From contig JANBVJ010000001.1 in NCBI GenBank assembly GCA_024239055.1, forward strand, positions 496,572 through 560,571: 64,000 bases of DNA. Reading direction: 5' to 3'. Shown piece by piece: positions 17,323-47,088 of the stretch; the first letter of the stretch is position 1; the number at the start of each line of letters is the position of its first letter. This DNA is from Patescibacteria group bacterium. GTDB taxonomy: Bacteria > Patescibacteriota > Minisyncoccia > Minisyncoccales > UBA10102. The translations under genes and the position numbers were made by a program. The notes beneath the pieces were generated by a model. That model had not been told where the DNA came from and made no database searches. It saw only the letters and a program-made list of their open reading frames with translations.

Positions 17323-19758
17323 ATGTTGCAATTTTCAGCAGATCGCAGAGGAGACGTTAACGAGCAGTTTTCAGAGAATGCATTAAAGATAATGAGAAAG
17401 CGTTATCTTTTAGAGCACAAAGACAAAACTCAAGAAGAGCCAGCTGATCTTTATGCCAGAGTTGCTGGTGCTGTTGCTGATGTCGAAAAGAAGTACGGCA
17501 AGGACGAAGAATTTGTAGCTAAAACTACCAAGGACTTTTTTGATATTATGGCATCCAAGGAGTTTACTCCTGCCGGACGAACGCTTACTAATGCGGGAAC
17601 CGAGACTTCCTTGATTGCAAACTGTATTGTTCTTCCAATCCACGATTCTATGGAGAGTATCTTTCAGACAATGAAAGATGCCGCTTTATTGCAGCAGGCA
17701 GGATCTGGACTTGGCTTTGACTTTTCTGAGCTGCGGCCGGCTTACTTTATTACAAAGCGCTCTCGTGGACGCTCTTCAGGTCCAGTATCATTTCTAAGGG
17801 TATATGATGCGGCTTTCGGCACCATTAAGCAGCAGGGACGACATGGGGCTAACATGGCTATGATGCGAGTAGACCATCCAGATATACTGGACTTTATTCG
17901 GTGCAAAAAACAGGAAGGTCAGATTCGTAACTTTAATATCACAGTCACAATGACAGATGAGTTTATGGAGCAACTTCAGGAGAATCCTGATCAGTTGTGG
18001 CATGGAACATTTAAAGGAGAAAAATACAAGCCTCAAAATGTATTACGTTATCCTAATGGTGCGGTAAAGGGATCAGAAGAAATAGATATTACGGTTGGGG
18101 AATTGTACAACGAGTTAGTTGAGTCTGCCTGGAATAATGGGGAACCCGGCATTGCATTTATTGATACGGTCAATAAAACGAATCCCCTGCCTGGCTTGGG
18201 TCCCGTTGCGTCTTCTAATCCGTGCGGTGAGCAGTTTCTTCATCCGTATGATAACTGCAATCTAGGTTCTATTAATTTGGAACGTTTTGTTAAAGACGGA
18301 GAGATTGACTGGGAGCGTCTGCGCTTTGTGACTGTTGCTGCAACAAGAATGCTAGATAATGTTATTGATCTTTTTGAATTTCCTATACCCCAGGTCACGG
18401 AGTTGGCTTTAAAGAATAGGAGGGTTGGTCTTGGTATAATGGGATTTGGAGACATGCTTTATCAGTTGGATATTCCATATAATTCAGTTAAAGGAGTTGA
18501 GTTAGCAGAAAAGGTAATGGGATTTATTCAGGCGGTATCTCACGAGGCATCAGAGAAATTGGGAGATGAGAAAGGATCTTTTCCAAATTATGACAAGTCA
18601 ATATTTGCAGAAAGCGGAAGGAAGCGCAGGAATGCAGCCCTTACAACCGTGGCTCCAACAGGTTCTATTTCTATGATGTTTGATGTATCCTCTGGTATTG
18701 AGCCCATCTTTGCCTTAGCCTACGTTATGCAAGATAAAGACGGCCAGCAGTATCGCTATTTTAACAGGTACTTTGAGAAGGCTTTAGATGAACTTCAACT
18801 AAGCCAAGAGGAGAAGAACGGGATTATGGAGGAGGTTATTGAAAAGGGAAGTATTCAGCATTTAGAATCTCTTCCAAAGGAACTGAGGGATGTATTTGTA
18901 GTTGCAATGGATATTTCAGGGGGGGATCATATGAAAATGCAGGCTGCCTTTCAGAGGCACGTGGATAACTCAATCTCAAAGACCATTAATTTTCCTAATT
19001 CAGCTACAAAAGAGGATATTGCCAAGAGTTTTATTTCTGCTTGGAAGCTGGGATGTAAATCATCTACCGTTTATCGAGACGGAAGCAGAGTTATTCAAGT
19101 TCTAAATATTGGAAATGGAGATAATGTAGTCTCTATTACAGAAGATCCTACAAAGCAGTTAGAAAAGACTTCAGTTCAGAATAAAACTGAGAAGATAGAA
19201 GAGAACCCAGTTGAAGAGAAAATAGAAAAGAAAGGTTCTGGAATTGTTCCCAGAGAACGCCCTGATGTCATGACTGGAAAGACGTATCGCATGAAGACAG
19301 GGTATGGGAATTTATATGTTACGGTAAACAATGACGAAAAAGGAGTTCCATTTGAGATCTTTGCAACTATTGGCAAGTCAGGAGGATTCTTTCAAGAGCA
19401 GTCAGAAGCTATATGTCGCATGGTCTCCCTATCTTTAAGATCTGGCATTGATGTAAAAGAGGTAGTGGACAACTTAAAGGGTATTCGAGGTCCTTCCCCT
19501 ATACTTACAGGTAAGGGCATGGTTCTTTCTTTGCCGGATGCCGTAGGGCAGATATTAGAAGAGCACGTTACAACAACAAGTAAGATTCAGGAAGTTATTG
19601 AACGACCCGAAAACCAGGAGGTTCTTCCCTTTGAGCAAAAAGATCAGTCCATAGCTGACTATGGTTTTATGCCAGGATGTCCTGATTGTGGCTCACCACT
19701 TGCTATGTCAGAAGGTTGCATCTCTTGTAAGTCTTGCGGCTTTAGCAGATGCGGATAA
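17323..19758 (+). CDS. nrdJ: Class II (adenosylcobalamin-dependent) ribonucleotide reductase
   Basis: 811 aa with RNR barrel motifs (NCIVLP, SNPCGEQ, TVAPTGS, KTINFP) and a C-terminal Cys-rich tail CPDCGS...CISCKSCGFSRCG. Confidence 0.9.
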   Translation: MLQFSADRRGDVNEQFSENALKIMRKRYLLEHKDKTQEEPADLYARVAGAVADVEKKYGKDEEFVAKTTKDFFDIMASKEFTPAGRTLTNAGTETSLIANCIVLPIHDSMESIFQTMKDAALLQQAGSGLGFDFSELRPAYFITKRSRGRSSGPVSFLRVYDAAFGTIKQQGRHGANMAMMRVDHPDILDFIRCKKQEGQIRNFNITVTMTDEFMEQLQENPDQLWHGTFKGEKYKPQNVLRYPNGAVKGSEEIDITVGELYNELVESAWNNGEPGIAFIDTVNKTNPLPGLGPVASSNPCGEQFLHPYDNCNLGSINLERFVKDGEIDWERLRFVTVAATRMLDNVIDLFEFPIPQVTELALKNRRVGLGIMGFGDMLYQLDIPYNSVKGVELAEKVMGFIQAVSHEASEKLGDEKGSFPNYDKSIFAESGRKRRNAALTTVAPTGSISMMFDVSSGIEPIFALAYVMQDKDGQQYRYFNRYFEKALDELQLSQEEKNGIMEEVIEKGSIQHLESLPKELRDVFVVAMDISGGDHMKMQAAFQRHVDNSISKTINFPNSATKEDIAKSFISAWKLGCKSSTVYRDGSRVIQVLNIGNGDNVVSITEDPTKQLEKTSVQNKTEKIEENPVEEKIEKKGSGIVPRERPDVMTGKTYRMKTGYGNLYVTVNNDEKGVPFEIFATIGKSGGFFQEQSEAICRMVSLSLRSGIDVKEVVDNLKGIRGPSPILTGKGMVLSLPDAVGQILEEHVTTTSKIQEVIERPENQEVLPFEQKDQSIADYGFMPGCPDCGSPLAMSEGCISCKSCGFSRCG

Positions 19759-20295
19759 ATGAAATATCTTCCACTTCTCTTTCTTCTTGTTTTTACTGTA
19801 GCTGCTATTATTTTACGCCTGATTCCCCATCCAGCTAACTTTGCTGCCATTGCAGCTTTAGCTTTGTTTACTGGAACCTACTGTGTTAAATTCTCAAAAT
19901 GGTGGCTTCTGGCTCCTCTAGCTGCTATGGTTGTATCTGATATTTTTATTGGTACGTATGACTTCAGGATAATGGCTGCGGTTTATGGCAGCTTTTTGGT
20001 TGTAGGACTAATTGGTATTGTTGTGGCAAAACACAAGCGAGTAGGGTCTATATTACTTTCTAGTGTGACAGCCTCCATACTCTTTTATCTTACAACCAAC
20101 TTTGCCGTATGGATGTTCGGCACACTTTATCCTCTTACCTTTGAGGGCTTGATGGCTTCATATGTTATGGCGCTTCCATTCTTTCGTAATACCTTTCTCG
20201 GAGATTTATTTTACGTAAGTGTGTTCTTTGGAGTATATGAGTTTGCTGTGGCCGTACTACCTTCGTTGAAATCTATAAAAGTAAGAACAATATAA
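19759..20295 (+). CDS. Polytopic membrane protein (DUF6580-like putative transporter component)
   Basis: 178 aa with about 5 TM helices and N-terminal RLIPHPANFAAIAALALFTG. The ATG directly abuts the nrdJ stop. Confidence 0.4.
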   Translation: MKYLPLLFLLVFTVAAIILRLIPHPANFAAIAALALFTGTYCVKFSKWWLLAPLAAMVVSDIFIGTYDFRIMAAVYGSFLVVGLIGIVVAKHKRVGSILLSSVTASILFYLTTNFAVWMFGTLYPLTFEGLMASYVMALPFFRNTFLGDLFYVSVFFGVYEFAVAVLPSLKSIKVRTI

Positions 20296-20300
20296 CAAAA

Positions 20301-20328
20301 CCCCCTTATGCGGGGGAATTTTGTTTTT
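20301..20328 (+). terminator. Rho-independent terminator after the nrdJ operon
   Basis: CCCCC-TTATGC-GGGGG followed by AATTTTGTTTTT. Confidence 0.65.
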
Positions 20329-20330
20329 GG

Positions 20331-20401
20331 AGCGAGTGAAGGGAATCGAACCCTCGTACTCTGATTGGCAACCAGATGCACTACCACTGTGCTACACTCG
20401 C
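20331..20401 (-). tRNA. tRNA-Gly (anticodon GCC)
   Basis: Minus-strand acceptor GCGAGTG/CACTCGC and anticodon arm TCTGG-TTGCCAA-TCAGA. Confidence 0.9.
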
Positions 20402-20426
20402 GGCTACACTCGCGATGTTCTCTTTG

Positions 20427-20498
20427 TGCCACGGGGGTGAATTGAACACCCGACTCGAGGCTCTTCAAGCCCCAGCTCTACCACTGAGCTACCGTGGC
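20427..20498 (-). tRNA. tRNA-Phe (anticodon GAA)
   Basis: Minus-strand acceptor GCCACGG/CCGTGGC and anticodon arm GGGGC-TTGAAGA-GCCTC. Confidence 0.9.
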
Positions 20499-20499
20499 A

Positions 20500-20575
20500 T
20501 GGTGGGCGGTATAGGATTCAAACCTATGGCCTCCTCGGTGTAAACGAGGCGCTCTATCAGCTGAGCTAACCGCCC
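20500..20575 (-). tRNA. tRNA-Val (anticodon TAC), CCA encoded
   Basis: Minus-strand acceptor GGGCGGT/ACCGCCC and anticodon arm CCTCG-TTTACAC-CGAGG. Confidence 0.9.
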
Positions 20576-20586
20576 TTGTTTCTATG

Positions 20587-20669
20587 TGCGGACGAGAGGA
20601 TTCGAACCTCCACGGGAATAATCCCACTGGCCCCTCAAGCCAGCGCGTCTACCATTCCGCCACGTCCGC
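20587..20669 (-). tRNA. tRNA-Leu (anticodon GAG)
   Basis: Minus-strand acceptor GCGGACG/CGTCCGC, a long variable arm and anticodon arm CTGGC-TTGAGGG-GCCAG. Confidence 0.9.
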
Positions 20670-20677
20670 AAATATTG

Positions 20678-21181
20678 TTAAGCCTCTTTCTTCTCTTCTT
20701 TTTTAGGAGTTTCCTCTTTCTTTTCTGCTTCTACTGGCTTTTCTTCAGTAGTGGTTTCTTCTTTCTGTTCTGGTTCTTTTTGAGGCGTTTCTTCTGGAGC
20801 TTTCTCTTCCTCTGGCTCCTCGAATACCAGACCTACGGATTCCGCTTTTAGTCGTGCCTTTCTACCCTTTGCATTTCTTAGATAGTAGAGCTTGGCTCTT
20901 CTTACCTTAGCTCTGTTGATTACCTCTATTTTTTCAAGCACGGGTGAGTGAAGGGGAAATGTTCTCTCTACTCCATACCCTTTGCTTACTCTTCTTACAG
21001 TGATAGTTGCTGTAGGCCCTGAGCCATGTTTGTGGGCCAGGACTACTCCTTCAAAGACCTGGATTCGTTCCCTATCGCCTTCTTTAATCTTTTGGTGTAC
21101 ACGAACTGTATCTCCGGGTCTAATATCTGGGGTTGTTTTTTTCACCTGTGTTTTTTCAAATGTAGCTAACTTTTCGTTCAT
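20678..21181 (-). CDS. rplS: Ribosomal protein L19 with a K/E-rich C-terminal extension
   Basis: L19 core ([27 protein letters not shown]...RRAKLYYLR) followed by a tail of about 55 aa rich in E, K, P and T. Confidence 0.9.
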
Positions 21182-42531: not shown

Positions 42532-42604
42532 TATCCCCGGCAGGATTTGAACCTGCGGCCTCTTGGTCCGCAACCAAGCGCTCTATCCGCTGAGCTACGG
42601 GGAC
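42532..42604 (-). tRNA. tRNA-Arg (anticodon GCG)
   Basis: Minus-strand acceptor GTCCCCG/CGGGGAT and anticodon arm CTTGG-TTGCGGA-CCAAG. Confidence 0.85.
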
Positions 42605-42681
42605 ATATCAGTAGTCTAGCTGTATTTCTTTGGAATTTCAAGCTTGATTTTCCTCTATTTCTCCGTATAATATGCTTTATA

Positions 42682-42771
42682 GGAGAGGTGGCTGAGCGGC
42701 TGAAAGCAGCACACTGCTAATGTGCTAGGGGAGAAATCCTCTCGTGGGTTCGAATCCCACCCTCTCCGCCA
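42682..42771 (+). tRNA. tRNA-Ser (anticodon GCT), CCA encoded
   Basis: Acceptor GGAGAGG/CCTCTCC, G73, a long variable arm and anticodon arm GCACA-CTGCTAA-TGTGC. Confidence 0.9.
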
Positions 42772-42774
42772 TAC

Positions 42775-42859
42775 GGAGGAGTTGAGCAACGGTGGCTCTC
42801 TTGTCTTGAAAACAAGCGCCAGAAATGGCATGTGGGTTCGAATCCCTCCTCCTCCGCCA
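42775..42859 (+). tRNA. tRNA-Ser (anticodon TGA), CCA encoded
   Basis: Acceptor GGAGGAG/CTCCTCC, G73, a long variable arm and anticodon arm CTTGT-CTTGAAA-ACAAG. Confidence 0.85.
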
Positions 42860-42860
42860 A

Positions 42861-43505
42861 TTATTTTATCCCTGCAACAATCTGGGCGAGTCCTTTAAAG
42901 AAGGTTCGCTTTTTTGTTTGAGTAAATCCTATTTGTGAGAGTTCTTCTTGTAAGGGTTCAGTAAATATCCCCCAAGCTTCTTTGTTCTCTACTAAAAAGA
43001 ACTGAATATATATAGGAAGGCGAAAGAGAGGGAATTGAGGCATATGGTATTCATATATAATAAATACACCTCCTTTTTTTAAGAGACGGTATGCTTCTTT
43101 CATAACCAAAAGTCGTTGCGTATGTGGAAGGTCGTGAATGGCAAAGCTTATTATTACCGTATCTGCTATGTTTGACGAATATGAGGTATGAACCGCATCT
43201 TGAAGGGATATCTCAATTTCAATATTTTGTTTTACGGCTTTTCTTTGTATTTGTTTCAACATACCCTCAGATAGGTCAGAAGCCAAAACACGAGAGTTAG
43301 GATACTCTTTCTTTAATAAAAGAGCTGCCTCTCCTGTTCCGCAGGCCAAATCAATGATTATCTTTGGGTTTTTAGGAATGAATTGAAGTATTTTTCTTCT
43401 TAGTGCTTTTGTATTTCCTAGTACTCCAATTGAAACCCATAGGTCATACATGGGTGGTAGCCATCTTGATACAAAGAGTCCTCTGTAATATGTAGGTTTT
43501 TTCAC
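42861..43505 (-). CDS. Class I SAM-dependent methyltransferase
   Basis: Motif I IIDLACGTGEAA, followed by the VLASDLS and ISFAIHDL motifs. Confidence 0.75.
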   Translation of the reverse strand: MKKPTYYRGLFVSRWLPPMYDLWVSIGVLGNTKALRRKILQFIPKNPKIIIDLACGTGEAALLLKKEYPNSRVLASDLSEGMLKQIQRKAVKQNIEIEISLQDAVHTSYSSNIADTVIISFAIHDLPHTQRLLVMKEAYRLLKKGGVFIIYEYHMPQFPLFRLPIYIQFFLVENKEAWGIFTEPLQEELSQIGFTQTKKRTFFKGLAQIVAGIK

Positions 43506-43578
43506 AAGTGTTTTTATATTTTGGAATTAATTTATATTTATAGAGATAATTATAAAAAAGTTTTGTCTAAATAATATA

Positions 43579-44553
43579 TTAATTCTTTGTAGAGTTTTCA
43601 ATGTATTTTTTGTAATTAATAAGTGATTTTCGTCTTTTTTTAATATATATTTTTTGATTTAGTATTAATGAGCGCTTTAATTTATTTTTTGTTCTATCGA
43701 TTTTCGATTTTGTTTTTCCACCAATAGATAATCTGTTTCTATACATTTTTAATCCTAGATGTTCCATACCTTCTTCATGAGATATTATATCTTTTTTGGA
43801 ATCATTTAGAGGAAGTCCTTGATTTTTATCTATTAAGAATAATTGTTTAATTTCATCATAAAGTTTTTCCATCTGAGCTTTTGAAACTCTACTTGCAGTT
43901 ATACCTATGTCATCTACATAAATTGCTATGCGTGGATCTTTGCCTTTCAAACGTTTTTTTACAAGTTGATCAAGTTTTAAAAAGATATCAAGATTACACC
44001 ATATGGCTAGTCGTGATGATGTAGCAAATCCACGTGCTATTGTTTTTTGCGTATTAGGATTTTCTTTTGGACCAATTGGAACACAACAAAATTTTGCTAG
44101 TAATCTAGCTCCTGTTTCACTACACTCACATTTGTTTCTAAAAAAATGATATACTCTTTCTTCACTAATTTGTTCAAAAAAATGGGTTATATCTAATTTC
44201 AATATAGTCCGTTCTCTTTTTACGCCAAGTAAATGTTTTACAGCTTTTGTGTGATTTAATTTTTTAACACCTCCAAAAATAAAATTAGGGAGCATCTTAT
44301 CATGAGGAGCTAGAACAGTTTTATTTATATTATCTAATAATCTACCTAATGGAGTTCTTTTTGCACTTCGGACATATTTTTCTTTTTCTGGCTCTGATTG
44401 GCTTTTATTATCTCTCCAATAATTATCGAAGTTTTTTATAACATCATTTATTAATACTAGTACATCTTCTTTTGGGAATTTAGTATGACTTAGATGTTTT
44501 GCTAATTCATTTTTGCTTCGTATATAAAGTCTTGGATATCGTCTATTTTCCAT
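43579..44553 (-). CDS. Reverse transcriptase, small retron-like / defence-type RT
   Basis: 324 aa with RT motifs FIFGGVKKLNHTKAVKHLLG, ILKLDITHFFEQIS (motif A Asp), IARGFATSSRLAIWCN, IAIYVDDIGITAS (YxDD) and GLPLNDSKK...EHLGLKM. It has no maturase or endonuclease domains. The gene is very AT-rich. Confidence 0.8.
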   Translation of the reverse strand: MENRRYPRLYIRSKNELAKHLSHTKFPKEDVLVLINDVIKNFDNYWRDNKSQSEPEKEKYVRSAKRTPLGRLLDNINKTVLAPHDKMLPNFIFGGVKKLNHTKAVKHLLGVKRERTILKLDITHFFEQISEERVYHFFRNKCECSETGARLLAKFCCVPIGPKENPNTQKTIARGFATSSRLAIWCNLDIFLKLDQLVKKRLKGKDPRIAIYVDDIGITASRVSKAQMEKLYDEIKQLFLIDKNQGLPLNDSKKDIISHEEGMEHLGLKMYRNRLSIGGKTKSKIDRTKNKLKRSLILNQKIYIKKRRKSLINYKKYIENSTKN

Positions 44554-44869
44554 CTTGTTTCAAAAGTTTTGCACGATTCTTAATTAAATGTTCCTGTAGT
44601 TTTTCACCAAACTCAATAAGCCTTTTTTCTATTTTTGAGAGATTTTGTTCGGATTCGTTTTTATTATAATAAAGAAAAGGAGTAATTGATGATGGATGTA
44701 TTTTTAAGCTTTCAGCAATTTTTGTGATTAAATTTTTCGATACATCTTTTTGGCCTGTTTCTACCATAGCAATAAGTACAGTAGAAACACCGATAGCTTT
44801 TGCAAATTCAGCTTGTGTCAGTCCAGCCTCATTTCTTATTTCTTTTAATAATTCTGGGAAAGTATACAT
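44543..44869 (-). CDS. XRE-family helix-turn-helix protein
   Basis: LKEIRNEAGLTQAEFAKAIGVSTVLIAMVETGQKDVSKNLITKIAESL is a canonical XRE HTH. Its stop overlaps the RT start by 11 nt (ATGGAAAATAG). Confidence 0.85.
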   Translation of the reverse strand: MYTFPELLKEIRNEAGLTQAEFAKAIGVSTVLIAMVETGQKDVSKNLITKIAESLKIHPSSITPFLYYNKNESEQNLSKIEKRLIEFGEKLQEHLIKNRAKLLKQDGK

Positions 44870-45376
44870 ATAAACGACTACAGGGCGATCATTATAGAAG
44901 ATCTTTGAGGATGTGAATAATCGCAGAGATTATTCGTAGGAGCCTCATTAGCTTCATTATTTTTGATCGCCCTGTGATACGGAAGGTACAATTCATCTCT
45001 AGGGTCCAAGTATTTGTGCATCATATTTTGTACTTAAGCGTTTAACATAGGCAATGTAGTCTTGCGACTGTTAGTTTATTAAGGACATACTCAGTTCCTC
45101 GCGGTTGTCAGTTTCGATCAAAACCTTCCGGTAATACCAGCAACCACGAGGTTGTAGGTAGTCCCCTGCAAGCAAGGCATAAATCTAATTAGTAATTGCT
45201 TGTCTTAACTTGTCTAACAACACGTGCACGCTACTTAATTTGCATGTAGGTGCTGGAACAAGGTCCGCTCCTTGTAAAAGAGAGGTCAGATGTTCTTTAA
45301 GTAAGAACAATCTATAATCTTCGAAATGAATTCCGCTTTTATCTGAATTGATTTTTAAATTAAGGTACTGCCTTAG
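44870..45376 (-). ncRNA. Candidate structured non-coding RNA / long leader of the HTH-RT operon
   Basis: No ORF of 60 aa or more on either strand. It lies downstream of a near-consensus promoter and holds at least 7 stem-loops. One 11-bp stem is fully paired (with a G-U) only on the minus-strand transcript. GC is higher than in the adjacent ORFs. Confidence 0.45.
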
Positions 45377-45381
45377 TATCT

Positions 45382-45409
45382 ATTATACAAAACGTATAAG
45401 TTTAGTCAA
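45382..45409 (-). promoter_or_regulatory. Sigma-70-like promoter driving the leader-HTH-RT unit
   Basis: On the minus strand: TTGACT (45409-45404), N16, TATAAT (45387-45382). Confidence 0.55.
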
Positions 45410-45453
45410 GGGTGATTATCTACAAGTAATCATAATTGAGCATGCAGGTATAT

Positions 45454-46005
45454 TTATCTTGCAACTACCATTCCCCATATATCTTGAGCTCCTTGTTTCT
45501 TTAATTTGCTAGCCATATCTTCCATGCGTTCCCCTGTGTCATATATGTCATCTACAAGGAGTATTCTTTTGTTTGGTAGCTCTTTAATAGATACAATGGG
45601 AATATTAAGAGAAGAGGAAAGTTCTCTTGTAATTTCTTTAATATGATTGAATCCCCTGCGTCGCTGTTCTTTTTTTGGTACAGGAATAGGAAGAAGAACC
45701 GAGTTATTTAAAAGCTTCTCATTGTGCGAGTTGAGAACGTGGGATATAATTAGAAAAGCGAATTGAGAGGAGAGATCACGAAGAAATGGAGGATTTTTAT
45801 AATGTGCTAGTGCTTTTTGAATGAGAGGTTCCTTAATAGAAGTTGCAGAAAGAAGTCCTGTGAGAGAGGGGCTGTTGTGCGAAAACACCTCTTTGTTTGG
45901 AGATATTGTTGCGAGGCAGTCCTCACAGAGATGAGTTCCTTCATTTTTACACGAGATGCAGATTTTCGGCCATAGAATAGTGAGTAAGGAATGAAGGATA
46001 AACAT
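45454..46005 (-). CDS. comFC: ComF-family phosphoribosyltransferase-like competence protein
   Basis: N-terminal Zn-finger Cys pairs (CISCKNEGTHLCEDC) and a C-terminal PRTase motif ILLVDDIYDTGERM. Confidence 0.75.
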   Translation of the reverse strand: MFILHSLLTILWPKICISCKNEGTHLCEDCLATISPNKEVFSHNSPSLTGLLSATSIKEPLIQKALAHYKNPPFLRDLSSQFAFLIISHVLNSHNEKLLNNSVLLPIPVPKKEQRRRGFNHIKEITRELSSSLNIPIVSIKELPNKRILLVDDIYDTGERMEDMASKLKKQGAQDIWGMVVAR

Positions 46006-46017
46006 TATATATATTGT

Positions 46018-47088
46018 ATGACGTTACCTAAAATAATTCCATCATTTAATTCCATTCCTTTTATTCCCAAGGTGGCTTTAGGAATAGATATTGGGACATC
46101 TTCTTTAAAGATAGTGGAGATATCCAAATGGGCAGGCAGAAAGTCTTTAAAAAACTACGGAGAGTTAAAAGCTATAACTCTATATGACAAACCATTTCGT
46201 ACCTTTGAGAAAAATACTCTTGTTCTCTCTAGCAAGGATATTGCTCGGGCTTTGAGGGCGATTATTCAGGAGTCTAAGATTACAAGCAAGAGGGCGGTTT
46301 TTTCCATCCCTGACTTTTCTTCTTTTTTTACTTCTTTTGAGCTCCCTCCTATGACTAAAGAAGAGCTTCCAGGGGCCGTTGACTTTGAGGCAAGAAAGCA
46401 TGTGCCCATGCCGTTATCTGAGGTAATTTTTGACTGGCAGATACTTTCTGGACGAGTTAAGCAGAATACTCCATTGAAGATTCTTTTGGTTGCGGTCCCC
46501 AGAGAGGTGGTAAATCAGTACCAGGAGATAGCCGCTCTTTCCAAACTAGAGCTTGTGGCTTTGGAAGCAGAAGCATTTGGGCTTATTCGCGCGACCTTGG
46601 AGGATGAGACAGAGTCAATGCTTGTCTTAGATATTGGTGCTCAGTCCACCACTGTAAATACTGTTATTGCCGGTCAACTTCATTCTTCTCGTTCATTTGA
46701 TATTGCCGGTAACGCGTTTTCTGAAAGAATAGCCCGTTCTCTTTCTATTAATGCTAAGGAAGCTGATGAAAAAAAGATGTCAAAAGGTATGGAAGACAAG
46801 TATATCCTTGAGATACTTACTCCTTTGGTGGATTTAGTTTCAGCTGAAATTAAAAAGTCAGTAGTACAGTTTCCAAAGGATATAAAACCATCCAAGTTGG
46901 TGCTGGCAGGCGGCACTTCCCGCCTTCCTGGACTGCGTGAGTATCTTAAAGAACAGACCGGAATTGTAACAGAATATGCCTCTCCTTTTAATTCGGTCTT
47001 TTATCCTCCGATTTTAGAGAGTACAATAAAGGTAATGGGCCCTTCTTATGCGGTAGCCGTTGGCGCGGCTCTTAGAGGAACCCAGTAG
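46018..47088 (+). CDS. pilM: Type IV pilus assembly protein PilM, copy 2
   Basis: GIDIGTSSLKIVE, VLDIGAQSTT and LAGGTSRLPGL. The ATG at 46018 is preferred because the listed start at 45991 overlaps comFC. Confidence 0.85.
   Translation: MTLPKIIPSFNSIPFIPKVALGIDIGTSSLKIVEISKWAGRKSLKNYGELKAITLYDKPFRTFEKNTLVLSSKDIARALRAIIQESKITSKRAVFSIPDFSSFFTSFELPPMTKEELPGAVDFEARKHVPMPLSEVIFDWQILSGRVKQNTPLKILLVAVPREVVNQYQEIAALSKLELVALEAEAFGLIRATLEDETESMLVLDIGAQSTTVNTVIAGQLHSSRSFDIAGNAFSERIARSLSINAKEADEKKMSKGMEDKYILEILTPLVDLVSAEIKKSVVQFPKDIKPSKLVLAGGTSRLPGLREYLKEQTGIVTEYASPFNSVFYPPILESTIKVMGPSYAVAVGAALRGTQ

Follow-up and report, generated by a model that had tools for sequence, protein, structure and literature searches.

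A probable type VI retron of Patescibacteria with covarying long-range RNA helices around a minimal, nested toxin-like reading frame

Introduction

In canonical retrons, the multicopy single-stranded DNA (msDNA) serves as the antitoxin, whereas type VI, a class in the 2020 classification of Mestre et al., is the sole retron type in which msDNA has been reported as an activator, switching the toxin on rather than holding it off. Two type VI systems have been described in preprints. According to the text of the first (Zhang et al., 10.1101/2025.10.22.683967), Retron-Vpa2 of Vibrio parahaemolyticus is expressed as a structured hybrid RNA (hyRNA) of ~470 nt that joins the msr-msd template to the reading frame of SP, a small protein that is toxic, and keeps the ribosome-binding site and start codon of SP sequestered; msDNA accumulates only upon phage triggering and is required for SP derepression, and a 7-nt direct repeat in the msd loop and the riboregulator loop is proposed to let msDNA hybridise to the leader, with the question of how synthesis of complementary DNA (cDNA) reaches the ribosome-binding site posed as open. 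In Retron-Sen3 (Garcia-Rodriguez et al., 10.64898/2026.04.27.721009), a helix-turn-helix (HTH) protein is the antitoxin to a constitutively made SP, HTH and SP work as a toxin–antitoxin module independently of the reverse transcriptase (RT), and the candidate msd stem-loop pairs over a long range with a site 3′ of the SP gene. Here we compare with these systems a locus in a 64,000-nt stretch of the genome of a Patescibacteria group bacterium (contig JANBVJ010000001.1 of assembly GCA_024239055.1, forward-strand positions 496,572 to 560,571; hereafter the window, with coordinates counted from its first letter). A sequence-only reading had described positions 44870–45409 as a hairpin-dense non-coding leader whose pairing supports a minus-strand RNA. 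We assign minus-strand positions 45424–43579, with good confidence, to a complete type VI retron that comprises a promoter with an operator palindrome, a hybrid RNA of ~507 nt, an HTH gene and an RT gene.

The locus appears to be of the known type VI kind and to follow the published hybrid-RNA layout, in a variant that we have not found described. Three of its features appear to be absent from the text of both preprints: a putative toxin that consists of a single helix and is encoded within a conserved leader open reading frame (ORF), in its +1 frame; direct base pairing of the msd hairpin loop with the toxin leader, backed by heavy covariation; and a composite helix with three partners. The covariance model published for Vpa2 (81 homologs), known here from the preprint's text rather than its figure, may already draw part of this arrangement, including “inverted repeats”.

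Results

Membership of the locus in type VI is well supported by protein models and gene layout (all features below are on the minus strand unless stated otherwise). The RT (43579–44553, 324 amino acids) keeps an intact catalytic YxDD motif (YVDD, residues 212–215) and has RT_VI as its best PADLOC model (3.5e-29, 100 bits; runner-up RT_IV, 5.3e-17). The HTH protein (44543–44869, 108 amino acids) is of the Cro/C1 type (Pfam HTH_3, 5.9e-13; best PADLOC model HTH_VI, 8.9e-15), and its gene is overlapped by the start of the RT gene by 11 nt, as expected of type VI, in which an HTH protein of ~91–110 amino acids is encoded directly upstream of, or overlapping, an RT of the type VI clade; the structured upstream non-coding RNA (ncRNA) with a1/a2 end repeats that is also characteristic of type VI is present as well. 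In support of the assignment, both proteins are homologous to those of a locus with SP-HTH-RT order in the Yersinia phage vB_YenM_56.17 (RT 26% identical, BLASTP E = 5e-14; HTH protein 31%); the identity of the RT to proteobacterial type VI members is only ~26%. The RT itself is 100% identical to a protein that NCBI assigns to Patescibacteria, and the source is a metagenome-assembled genome of this candidate phyla radiation group. Relatives of the RT numbered 448 at E <= 1e-10, those with a named source being almost all labelled Patescibacteria, and 127 related loci (47 from genomes and 80 from metagenomes) formed our comparison set, nearly all with an HTH gene directly upstream of the RT gene. 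This clade is divergent enough to expose RNA contacts by covariation alone, and homology among its loci begins exactly at the promoter.

That promoter bears out the sequence-only reading's proposal of minus-strand transcription from a distal site. A −35 hexamer, TTGACT (45404–45409, from a consensus scan), and a −10 hexamer, TATAAT (45382–45387, invariant in the 12 closest relatives), match 11 of the 12 consensus positions across a 16-nt spacer and would place the transcription start at ~45377–45374; the promoter block AACTTATACGTTTTGTATAAT is the best-conserved stretch across relatives. Included in the block and overlapping the −10 box is the palindrome TTATAC-N5-GTATAA (45383–45399, no strand), which was found with at most six mismatches in 83 of 115 loci, mostly 485–607 nt upstream of the HTH ATG, and is kept even where the RT is only 40–45% identical; in distant loci its spacer is inverted (GTTTT or AAAAA) with both half-sites retained. 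Its sequence marks it as the likely operator of a dimeric HTH protein. The elements that had been put forward as protein-binding sites are both present in the window, the palindrome CGTGCACG at 45223–45230 and the tandem repeat CTTGTCTTAA/CTTGTCTAA at 45199–45217; the former, distinct from the promoter palindrome, is not conserved, and the latter is only partly kept, its second copy being an arm of a conserved helix.

From this single conserved promoter, the region up to the HTH start codon would be transcribed as one hyRNA-like RNA of ~507 nt (44870–45376), supported by minimum free energy (MFE) folding, RNAalifold and an excess of G-U pairs. The minus-strand RNA from 45376 to 44870 folds with an MFE of −137 kcal/mol (z = −5.3 against dinucleotide shuffles), and the plus strand also folds better than its shuffles (z = −4.0), so that energy alone leaves the strand unfixed. 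The pairs themselves show that the RNA is the minus strand: the 11-bp stem of the sequence-only reading consists of ten Watson–Crick pairs and one position that reads G-U on the minus strand but would be a C-A mismatch on the plus strand, and the same argument extends family-wide, with 145 G-U against 21 A-C cells in the consensus pairs of an alignment of the leaders of the 12 closest relatives (A2). All seven previously listed pairings were found where they had been placed, those of 6, 6, 7, 8 and 12 bp and the long-range one of 8 bp being entirely Watson–Crick. Within A2, these stems are 83–100% paired, with 13 pairs changed on both sides and a covariation score of 0.193 (0.118 in shuffled alignments, 0 of 500 reaching the observed value; 0.04–0.075 in slid controls), and the RNAalifold consensus holds 122 pairs, 24 of them with compensatory changes. 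The impression that the region is GC-richer than the ORFs that follow was also correct (37.8% for 44870–45409, 30.0% for the HTH gene and 27.9% for the RT gene); the window averages 40.7%, and by comparison the HTH and RT genes are AT-rich (28–30% GC).

By sequence covariation, the first ~320 nt of the RNA (45373–45049) form an msr-msd-like domain that is closed by a terminal helix between a 5′ arm, a1 (AGGCAG, 45368–45373), and a 3′ arm, a2 (UUGCCU, 45049–45054). For distant loci, we compared the stability of each within-locus (self) duplex with that of cross-locus duplexes. This test gave p = 2.7e-6 for a1/a2, with many variants among 67 transcripts (for example, AGGACGAUC/AAUCGUCCC, GAACGGU/ACCGUUC and GGGUGUU/AACACCC), and the window carries three compensatory changes relative to its own relatives. 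About 44 nt 5′ of a2 lies stem-loop IV (45097–45151), which extends the noted 11-bp stem, is 100% paired in A2 with four to five covarying pairs and, by analogy with canonical retron geometry, is probably the msd hairpin, that is, the template for reverse transcription.

Further helices tie the 3′ part of the RNA back to this domain. In the helix that we call P-link, CAAUUCA (45344–45350), inside the conserved motif AAAAUCAAUUCA, pairs with UGAAUUG (44989–44995); at least 14 compensatory variants occur among 60 loci, and the self duplex was more stable than the cross-locus mean in 53 of the 60 (p = 5e-10). The helix PK, listed earlier as a “possible” long-range 8-bp pairing, proved to be real: its 5′ arm CGGAAGGU (45123–45130) lies in the apical loop of stem-loop IV, and its 3′ arm ACCUUCCG (44980–44987) ends 4 nt upstream of the next helix. 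At least 15 PK variants were found (including CGGAUGCC/GGCAUCCG, CGGACACC/GGUGUCCG, CGGGAAAC/GUUUCCCG, CAGGAGGC/GCCUCCUG and AGGGUGAC/GUCACCCU), with a self duplex more stable than the cross-locus mean in 58 of 60 loci (p = 9e-11); in windows anchored by flanking sequence only, from 33 distinct loci, 8 of 10 pairs had double changes, with 53 such cells counted against 13 +/- 3 when shuffled (0 of 500) and slid controls flat. The last of these helices joins inverted repeat 1 (IR1, ACAGGGCGAUCAAA, 44962–44975), which holds the purine run that is the ribosome-binding site of a small ORF, SP-B (described below), to inverted repeat 2 (IR2, 44880–44893) over 12–19 bp, with stabilities of −25.2 kcal/mol (self) and −14.8 kcal/mol (cross-locus) and the difference in the same direction in 53 of 54 loci (p = 9e-11). 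Because the 3′ arms of P-link and PK and then IR1 follow one another on strand 44995–44962, that strand is almost wholly duplexed by the P-link, PK and IR2 partners. Pairing of the msd loop just upstream of a buried toxin start is a prediction testable with a few compensatory mutants.

The region is not the non-coding leader that it had been taken for. In addition to the retron-type terminal repeats in its 5′ 320 nt, it contains two conserved ORFs, SP-B and ORF-A, which overlap in the last ~180 nt of the RNA and lie just upstream of the HTH gene across the family; both were missed by public annotation, and neither is present in the public protein collection. SP-B (44892–44957) has 21 codons (MKLMRLLRIISAIIHILKDLL) and a stop and is in the +1 frame relative to ORF-A. 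Its family, of 21–31 residues with the motif LRILRIILQIVRIIxDLL, was called in ~105 of 113 scanned loci and hand-checked in all 40 genome-derived loci, with an in-frame stop in two loci and a GUG or no clear start in a few. Mean pairwise differences of 0.57, 0.31 and 0.66 at codon positions 1, 2 and 3 (codon alignment of 40 loci) point to selection on the frame-B protein, whose sequence describes a cationic amphipathic helix (hydrophobic moment muH of 0.57 against 0.26 shuffled, net charge +3.3, 67% hydrophobic) that resembles the hydrophobic helix at the C terminus of the Yersinia phage SP. No sequence similarity to known SP clusters was detectable, and Pfam gave no match for the small peptides. 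SP-B, a conserved ORF of 21–31 residues (versus 55–79 in described SPs) nested in a second ORF, may be the counterpart of the SP gene with a hydrophobic helix that type VI retrons have between ncRNA and HTH gene, and its peptide is probably the toxin; the clade would then show that one amphipathic helix is enough for a type VI toxin. The two in-frame stops, a UGA in L006 and a UAG in L072 (both within the 150 nt upstream of the HTH start), occur in loci with ORF-A and the helices intact and may reflect toxin inactivation.

Burial of the SP-B start agrees with the hyRNA description, in which the ribosome-binding site and start of the SP are sequestered in stems of the msr-msd transcript. A purine run resembling a Shine–Dalgarno (SD) sequence precedes the SP-B AUG in 28 of 43 loci (canonical GGAGG in some), the SD window, within IR1, is 89% paired in folds of 54 loci, and in A2 the AUG columns 520–522 pair with columns 580–581.

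ORF-A (44878–45024, 48 codons) spans the P-link 3′ arm, the PK 3′ arm, IR1, SP-B and IR2, and its UAG stop precedes the HTH AUG by 8 nt. In 47 of 48 loci this frame is open and begins with an AUG, as against 1 of 48 for each other frame, and it ends in a conserved UAGUCGU at a median of 9 nt from the HTH AUG, which itself has an SD-like motif in only 2 of 43 loci; a stop so near an SD-less start suggests termination–reinitiation coupling. Within the overlap, openness of ORF-A is forced, because second positions of SP-B are mostly T and frame-A codons therefore become NNT, and it is the AUG and the upstream openness that are selected. The product seems not to matter: we rejected ORF-A as a conventional protein gene, since third codon positions are the most conserved in the overlap and the LPY and VVAL segments that look “conserved” are in fact RNA arms (PK 3′/IR1 and IR2), which change radically as the helices covary, and its unique N-terminal part has no codon-position bias (193/230/238). 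A +1 frameshift joining ORF-A to SP-B was set aside as well, given that nearly all loci provide SP-B with an AUG or GUG and an SD of its own and that a frame-B stop lies a few codons upstream of SP-B in many.

Comparison with described systems

The closest counterpart is Vpa2, to judge from the text of its preprint. Both loci produce, or would produce, a single structured transcript of ~470–510 nt from a native promoter, carrying msr-msd and a small toxin ORF ahead of HTH and RT, with the ribosome-binding site buried in stems, inverted repeats tying the 3′ part back to an msr-msd arm, and a short conserved motif in the msd hairpin loop linked to the toxin leader. The Vpa2 SP, however, is a single-frame protein of 55 residues, whereas here a separate hydrophobic-helix ORF of 21–31 codons lies in the +1 frame of a longer one. 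The linkage also differs in kind, as the direct repeats of the Vpa2 msd and riboregulator loops, by which msDNA would be complementary to the riboregulator, were not found here; the two motifs are instead complementary in the RNA and covary, so that msDNA would be a mimic of the leader arm and not its binding partner.

With the Retron-Sen3/cl2075 lineage, the locus shares, if SP-B is taken as its SP, the order SP-HTH-RT, an HTH gene overlapping the RT gene, an ncRNA with terminal inverted repeats, long-range pairing of the msd-candidate stem-loop with a flank of the SP gene, and an SP with a C-terminal hydrophobic or amphipathic helix. The pairings are differently placed: in Sen3, IR1-IR2 joins the 3′ segment of SL3 to a site past the SP stop, without significant covariation, whereas here the msd loop pairs upstream of the SP-B ribosome-binding site and covaries heavily. 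The cl2075 SPs have 75–79 residues (54 in the Yersinia phage locus) and no nested second frame, and Sen3 has post-translational control and constitutive single-stranded DNA (ssDNA).

Canonical retrons such as Retron-Eco1 (Ec86) likewise have a1/a2 at the RNA ends, short 5′ stem-loops, a longer 3′ hairpin by a2 and an RT gene that follows on the same strand. Their domain measures ~150–200 nt, in contrast to ~320 nt here, and their effector is a separate gene, whereas here the RNA runs into coding sequence and the effector is encoded inside it. No Rfam retron model matches: a scan of the whole window with 4227 models at gathering thresholds returned tRNAs only, and in a permissive scan of 43000–47000 nothing scored better than STnc410, whose 22.5 bits (E = 0.086) fall short of its threshold of 50.

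Proposed mechanism

From this architecture, we tentatively propose a dual-frame “triple-lock” switch. In the proposal, the 34-nt strand 44995–44962 would be splinted by the a1-proximal motif, the msd loop and IR2; the splinted strand would bury the start of a minimal 21-residue toxin nested +1 in the leader ORF; translation of that ORF would be the only ribosome route to HTH and RT; and reverse transcription would open the switch either by consuming the msd loop or through an msDNA decoy identical to the leader arm, neither route needing msDNA to hybridise to the leader. By analogy with canonical retron geometry and the two preprints, the RT would prime next to a1/a2 and copy the a2-proximal tail and stem-loop IV into msDNA. 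The PK lock could be removed by copying of the template, by RNase H removal of the template or by msDNA that mimics the PK 3′ arm in trans, with activation in this decoy version depending on the ACCTTCCGG loop. Loss of PK would loosen the composite helix and let ribosomes start on SP-B, the peptide of which would then damage the membrane and abort phage infection. ORF-A, for its part, would be translated for the act and not the product, bringing ribosomes through the locked helix to the SD-less HTH start and on to the overlapping RT. The HTH protein would repress the promoter at the palindrome and may also be antitoxin and a brake on the RT, as reported for published type VI retrons. Here msDNA synthesis, toxicity and the switching mechanism are what we infer; if true, the proposal would explain, in concrete terms that mutants can test, how type VI retrons couple cDNA synthesis to toxin translation.

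Several observations weigh against the overall reading of the locus as a type VI retron that works in this way. The helices a1/a2, P-link and PK cross one another, and would form either a multi-pseudoknot or alternative conformers; the priming G was not pinned down in this RNA; and in single-sequence folds only 42% of the positions of the SP-B AUG itself are paired, with the window's own SD-like run, AGGG, far from this AUG (14 nt upstream). Predicted msDNA showed no locus-specific complementarity to the downstream leader (p = 0.66) in what is a crude, blunt duplex test. Given that result and the complementarity of the two motifs to each other in the RNA, the hybridisation of msDNA to the leader proposed for Vpa2 does not carry over directly to this locus. 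The two published type VI systems also differ from each other, one exerting translational and the other post-translational control according to the preprints' text. Finally, a census cited in one preprint (10.64898/2026.04.27.721009) is reported there to have obtained no detectable ssDNA from six type VI retrons in Escherichia coli, including one from Candidatus Levybacteria.

The census result would also fit the best-surviving alternative, that the RNA is an ordinary cis-regulatory 5′ leader of HTH-RT (an attenuator or riboregulator) that never serves as a template, with the RT using some other substrate. The IR1/IR2 hairpin immediately upstream of the SD-less HTH start and the lack of an Rfam retron family match could be read in the same way. 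We nevertheless consider a plain leader unlikely, because the a1/a2 terminal repeat at the extreme 5′ end covaries strongly and has the geometry that defines retron ncRNAs, because the two type VI retrons studied so far both produce RT-dependent ssDNA from the corresponding region, and because ~320 nt of conserved structure ahead of the ORFs is hard to account for by translational control alone.

A second alternative, very improbable in our view, is a self-contained cassette resembling hok/mok-type type I toxin–antitoxin systems that merely lies beside the RT. As in hok/mok/sok of plasmid R1, a small hydrophobic toxin ORF (SP-B) is overlapped by a longer ORF in another frame (ORF-A) that is kept open, translation of the longer ORF would open the toxin start, and long-range fold-back helices keep the messenger closed and bury the SD; the peptide is cationic and amphipathic besides. 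Yet the cassette was seen only with this HTH-RT pair in all 127 loci, and the partners of its locks are the motif next to a1 and the hairpin loop near a2, which makes it physically integrated with the retron RNA. In contrast to hok/mok/sok, to which it is unrelated in sequence, a retron template domain provides the locks, ORF-A seems to bring ribosomes to HTH-RT as well, and no antisense RNA is known here (no search for an antisense promoter or transcript was made). As the HTH-SP module of Sen3 works independently of the RT, this alternative overlaps the switch that we propose.

That the inverted repeats act as DNA (protein-binding palindromes or recombination sites) and not as RNA is scarcely credible, for although the plus strand also beats its shuffles and the promoter palindrome is probably a DNA operator, the excess of G-U over A-C cells is sensible only for a minus-strand RNA, helices with arms 140–360 nt apart covary and the CGTGCACG palindrome is not conserved.

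Local structure and genomic context

Among the local hairpins, I, IV and one inside SP-B covary. Stem-loop I (45287–45314) extends a noted 6-bp stem to 11 bp and is 93% paired, with three double-change pairs. Stem-loop II (ACAAGG/CCUUGU, 45258–45275) has 5 conserved base pairs, is 83% paired with one double change and faces a rival pairing of CCUCUC (45285–45280) with GGAGCGG (45271–45265) that the RNAalifold consensus favours; both alternatives are conserved, covariation favours neither, and they may form a local switch. Region III (45165–45250), which includes the noted 7-bp stem, the CGTGCACG palindrome and the direct repeat, is a variable stem-loop region and the most variable block of A2, within which CAAG(N)/(N)CUUG is conserved and one of its pairs covaries (UA in 7 sequences, CG in 4 and AU in 1). 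The outermost one or two pairs of the stems 45258/45275 and 45169/45202 are specific to the window. The inner hairpin within the SP-B coding sequence (44912–44938, the noted 8-bp stem) is 98% paired, and at its pair 549/555 five of the 12 sequences have CG in place of UA.

On the minus strand, the gene order is a comF-like gene, a 584-nt gap, HTH, RT, an S-adenosylmethionine (SAM) methyltransferase gene, tRNA genes and recG. Neither the methyltransferase gene (42861–43505) nor the gene for a ComF-like phosphoribosyltransferase (46005–45454) is part of a conserved flank in the 127 related loci, the sole match being a ComF of 23% identity on the opposite strand downstream of the RT in one locus (L032). 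As the neighbours are not conserved, we rejected both genes as parts of the module, which comprises promoter, RNA, HTH and RT only; at ~1.85 kb, this compact module occurs in differing genomic contexts and is widely carried by reduced-genome Patescibacteria. Searches with the RT (tBLASTn) found nothing in plasmids and distant matches only in phages.

A few close relatives of this retron are in metagenome-assembled genomes labelled Gammaproteobacteria, Planctomycetota or Bdellovibrionales (L009, L019, L023 and L027), owing either to mis-binning or to horizontal transfer. The P2-like Yersinia phage vB_YenM_56.17 (L128, record 19407–20827) carries its retron-type locus, in the type VI order of SP (54 residues), HTH and RT, between tail completion gene S and baseplate gene V. 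In IMG/VR, seven contigs contain near-identical copies of that locus, and a scan with the phage RT returned nothing beyond near-identical copies.

Elsewhere in the window, which has 20 tRNA genes, three of these lie just past the methyltransferase gene that adjoins the retron (42532–42856), and the TTG start listed for the RecG ORF (42577) overlaps a tRNA gene and is probably spurious. At 45991–46005, the start codons of the comF-like gene (minus strand) and of pilM (plus strand) overlap by 15 nt in divergent orientation.

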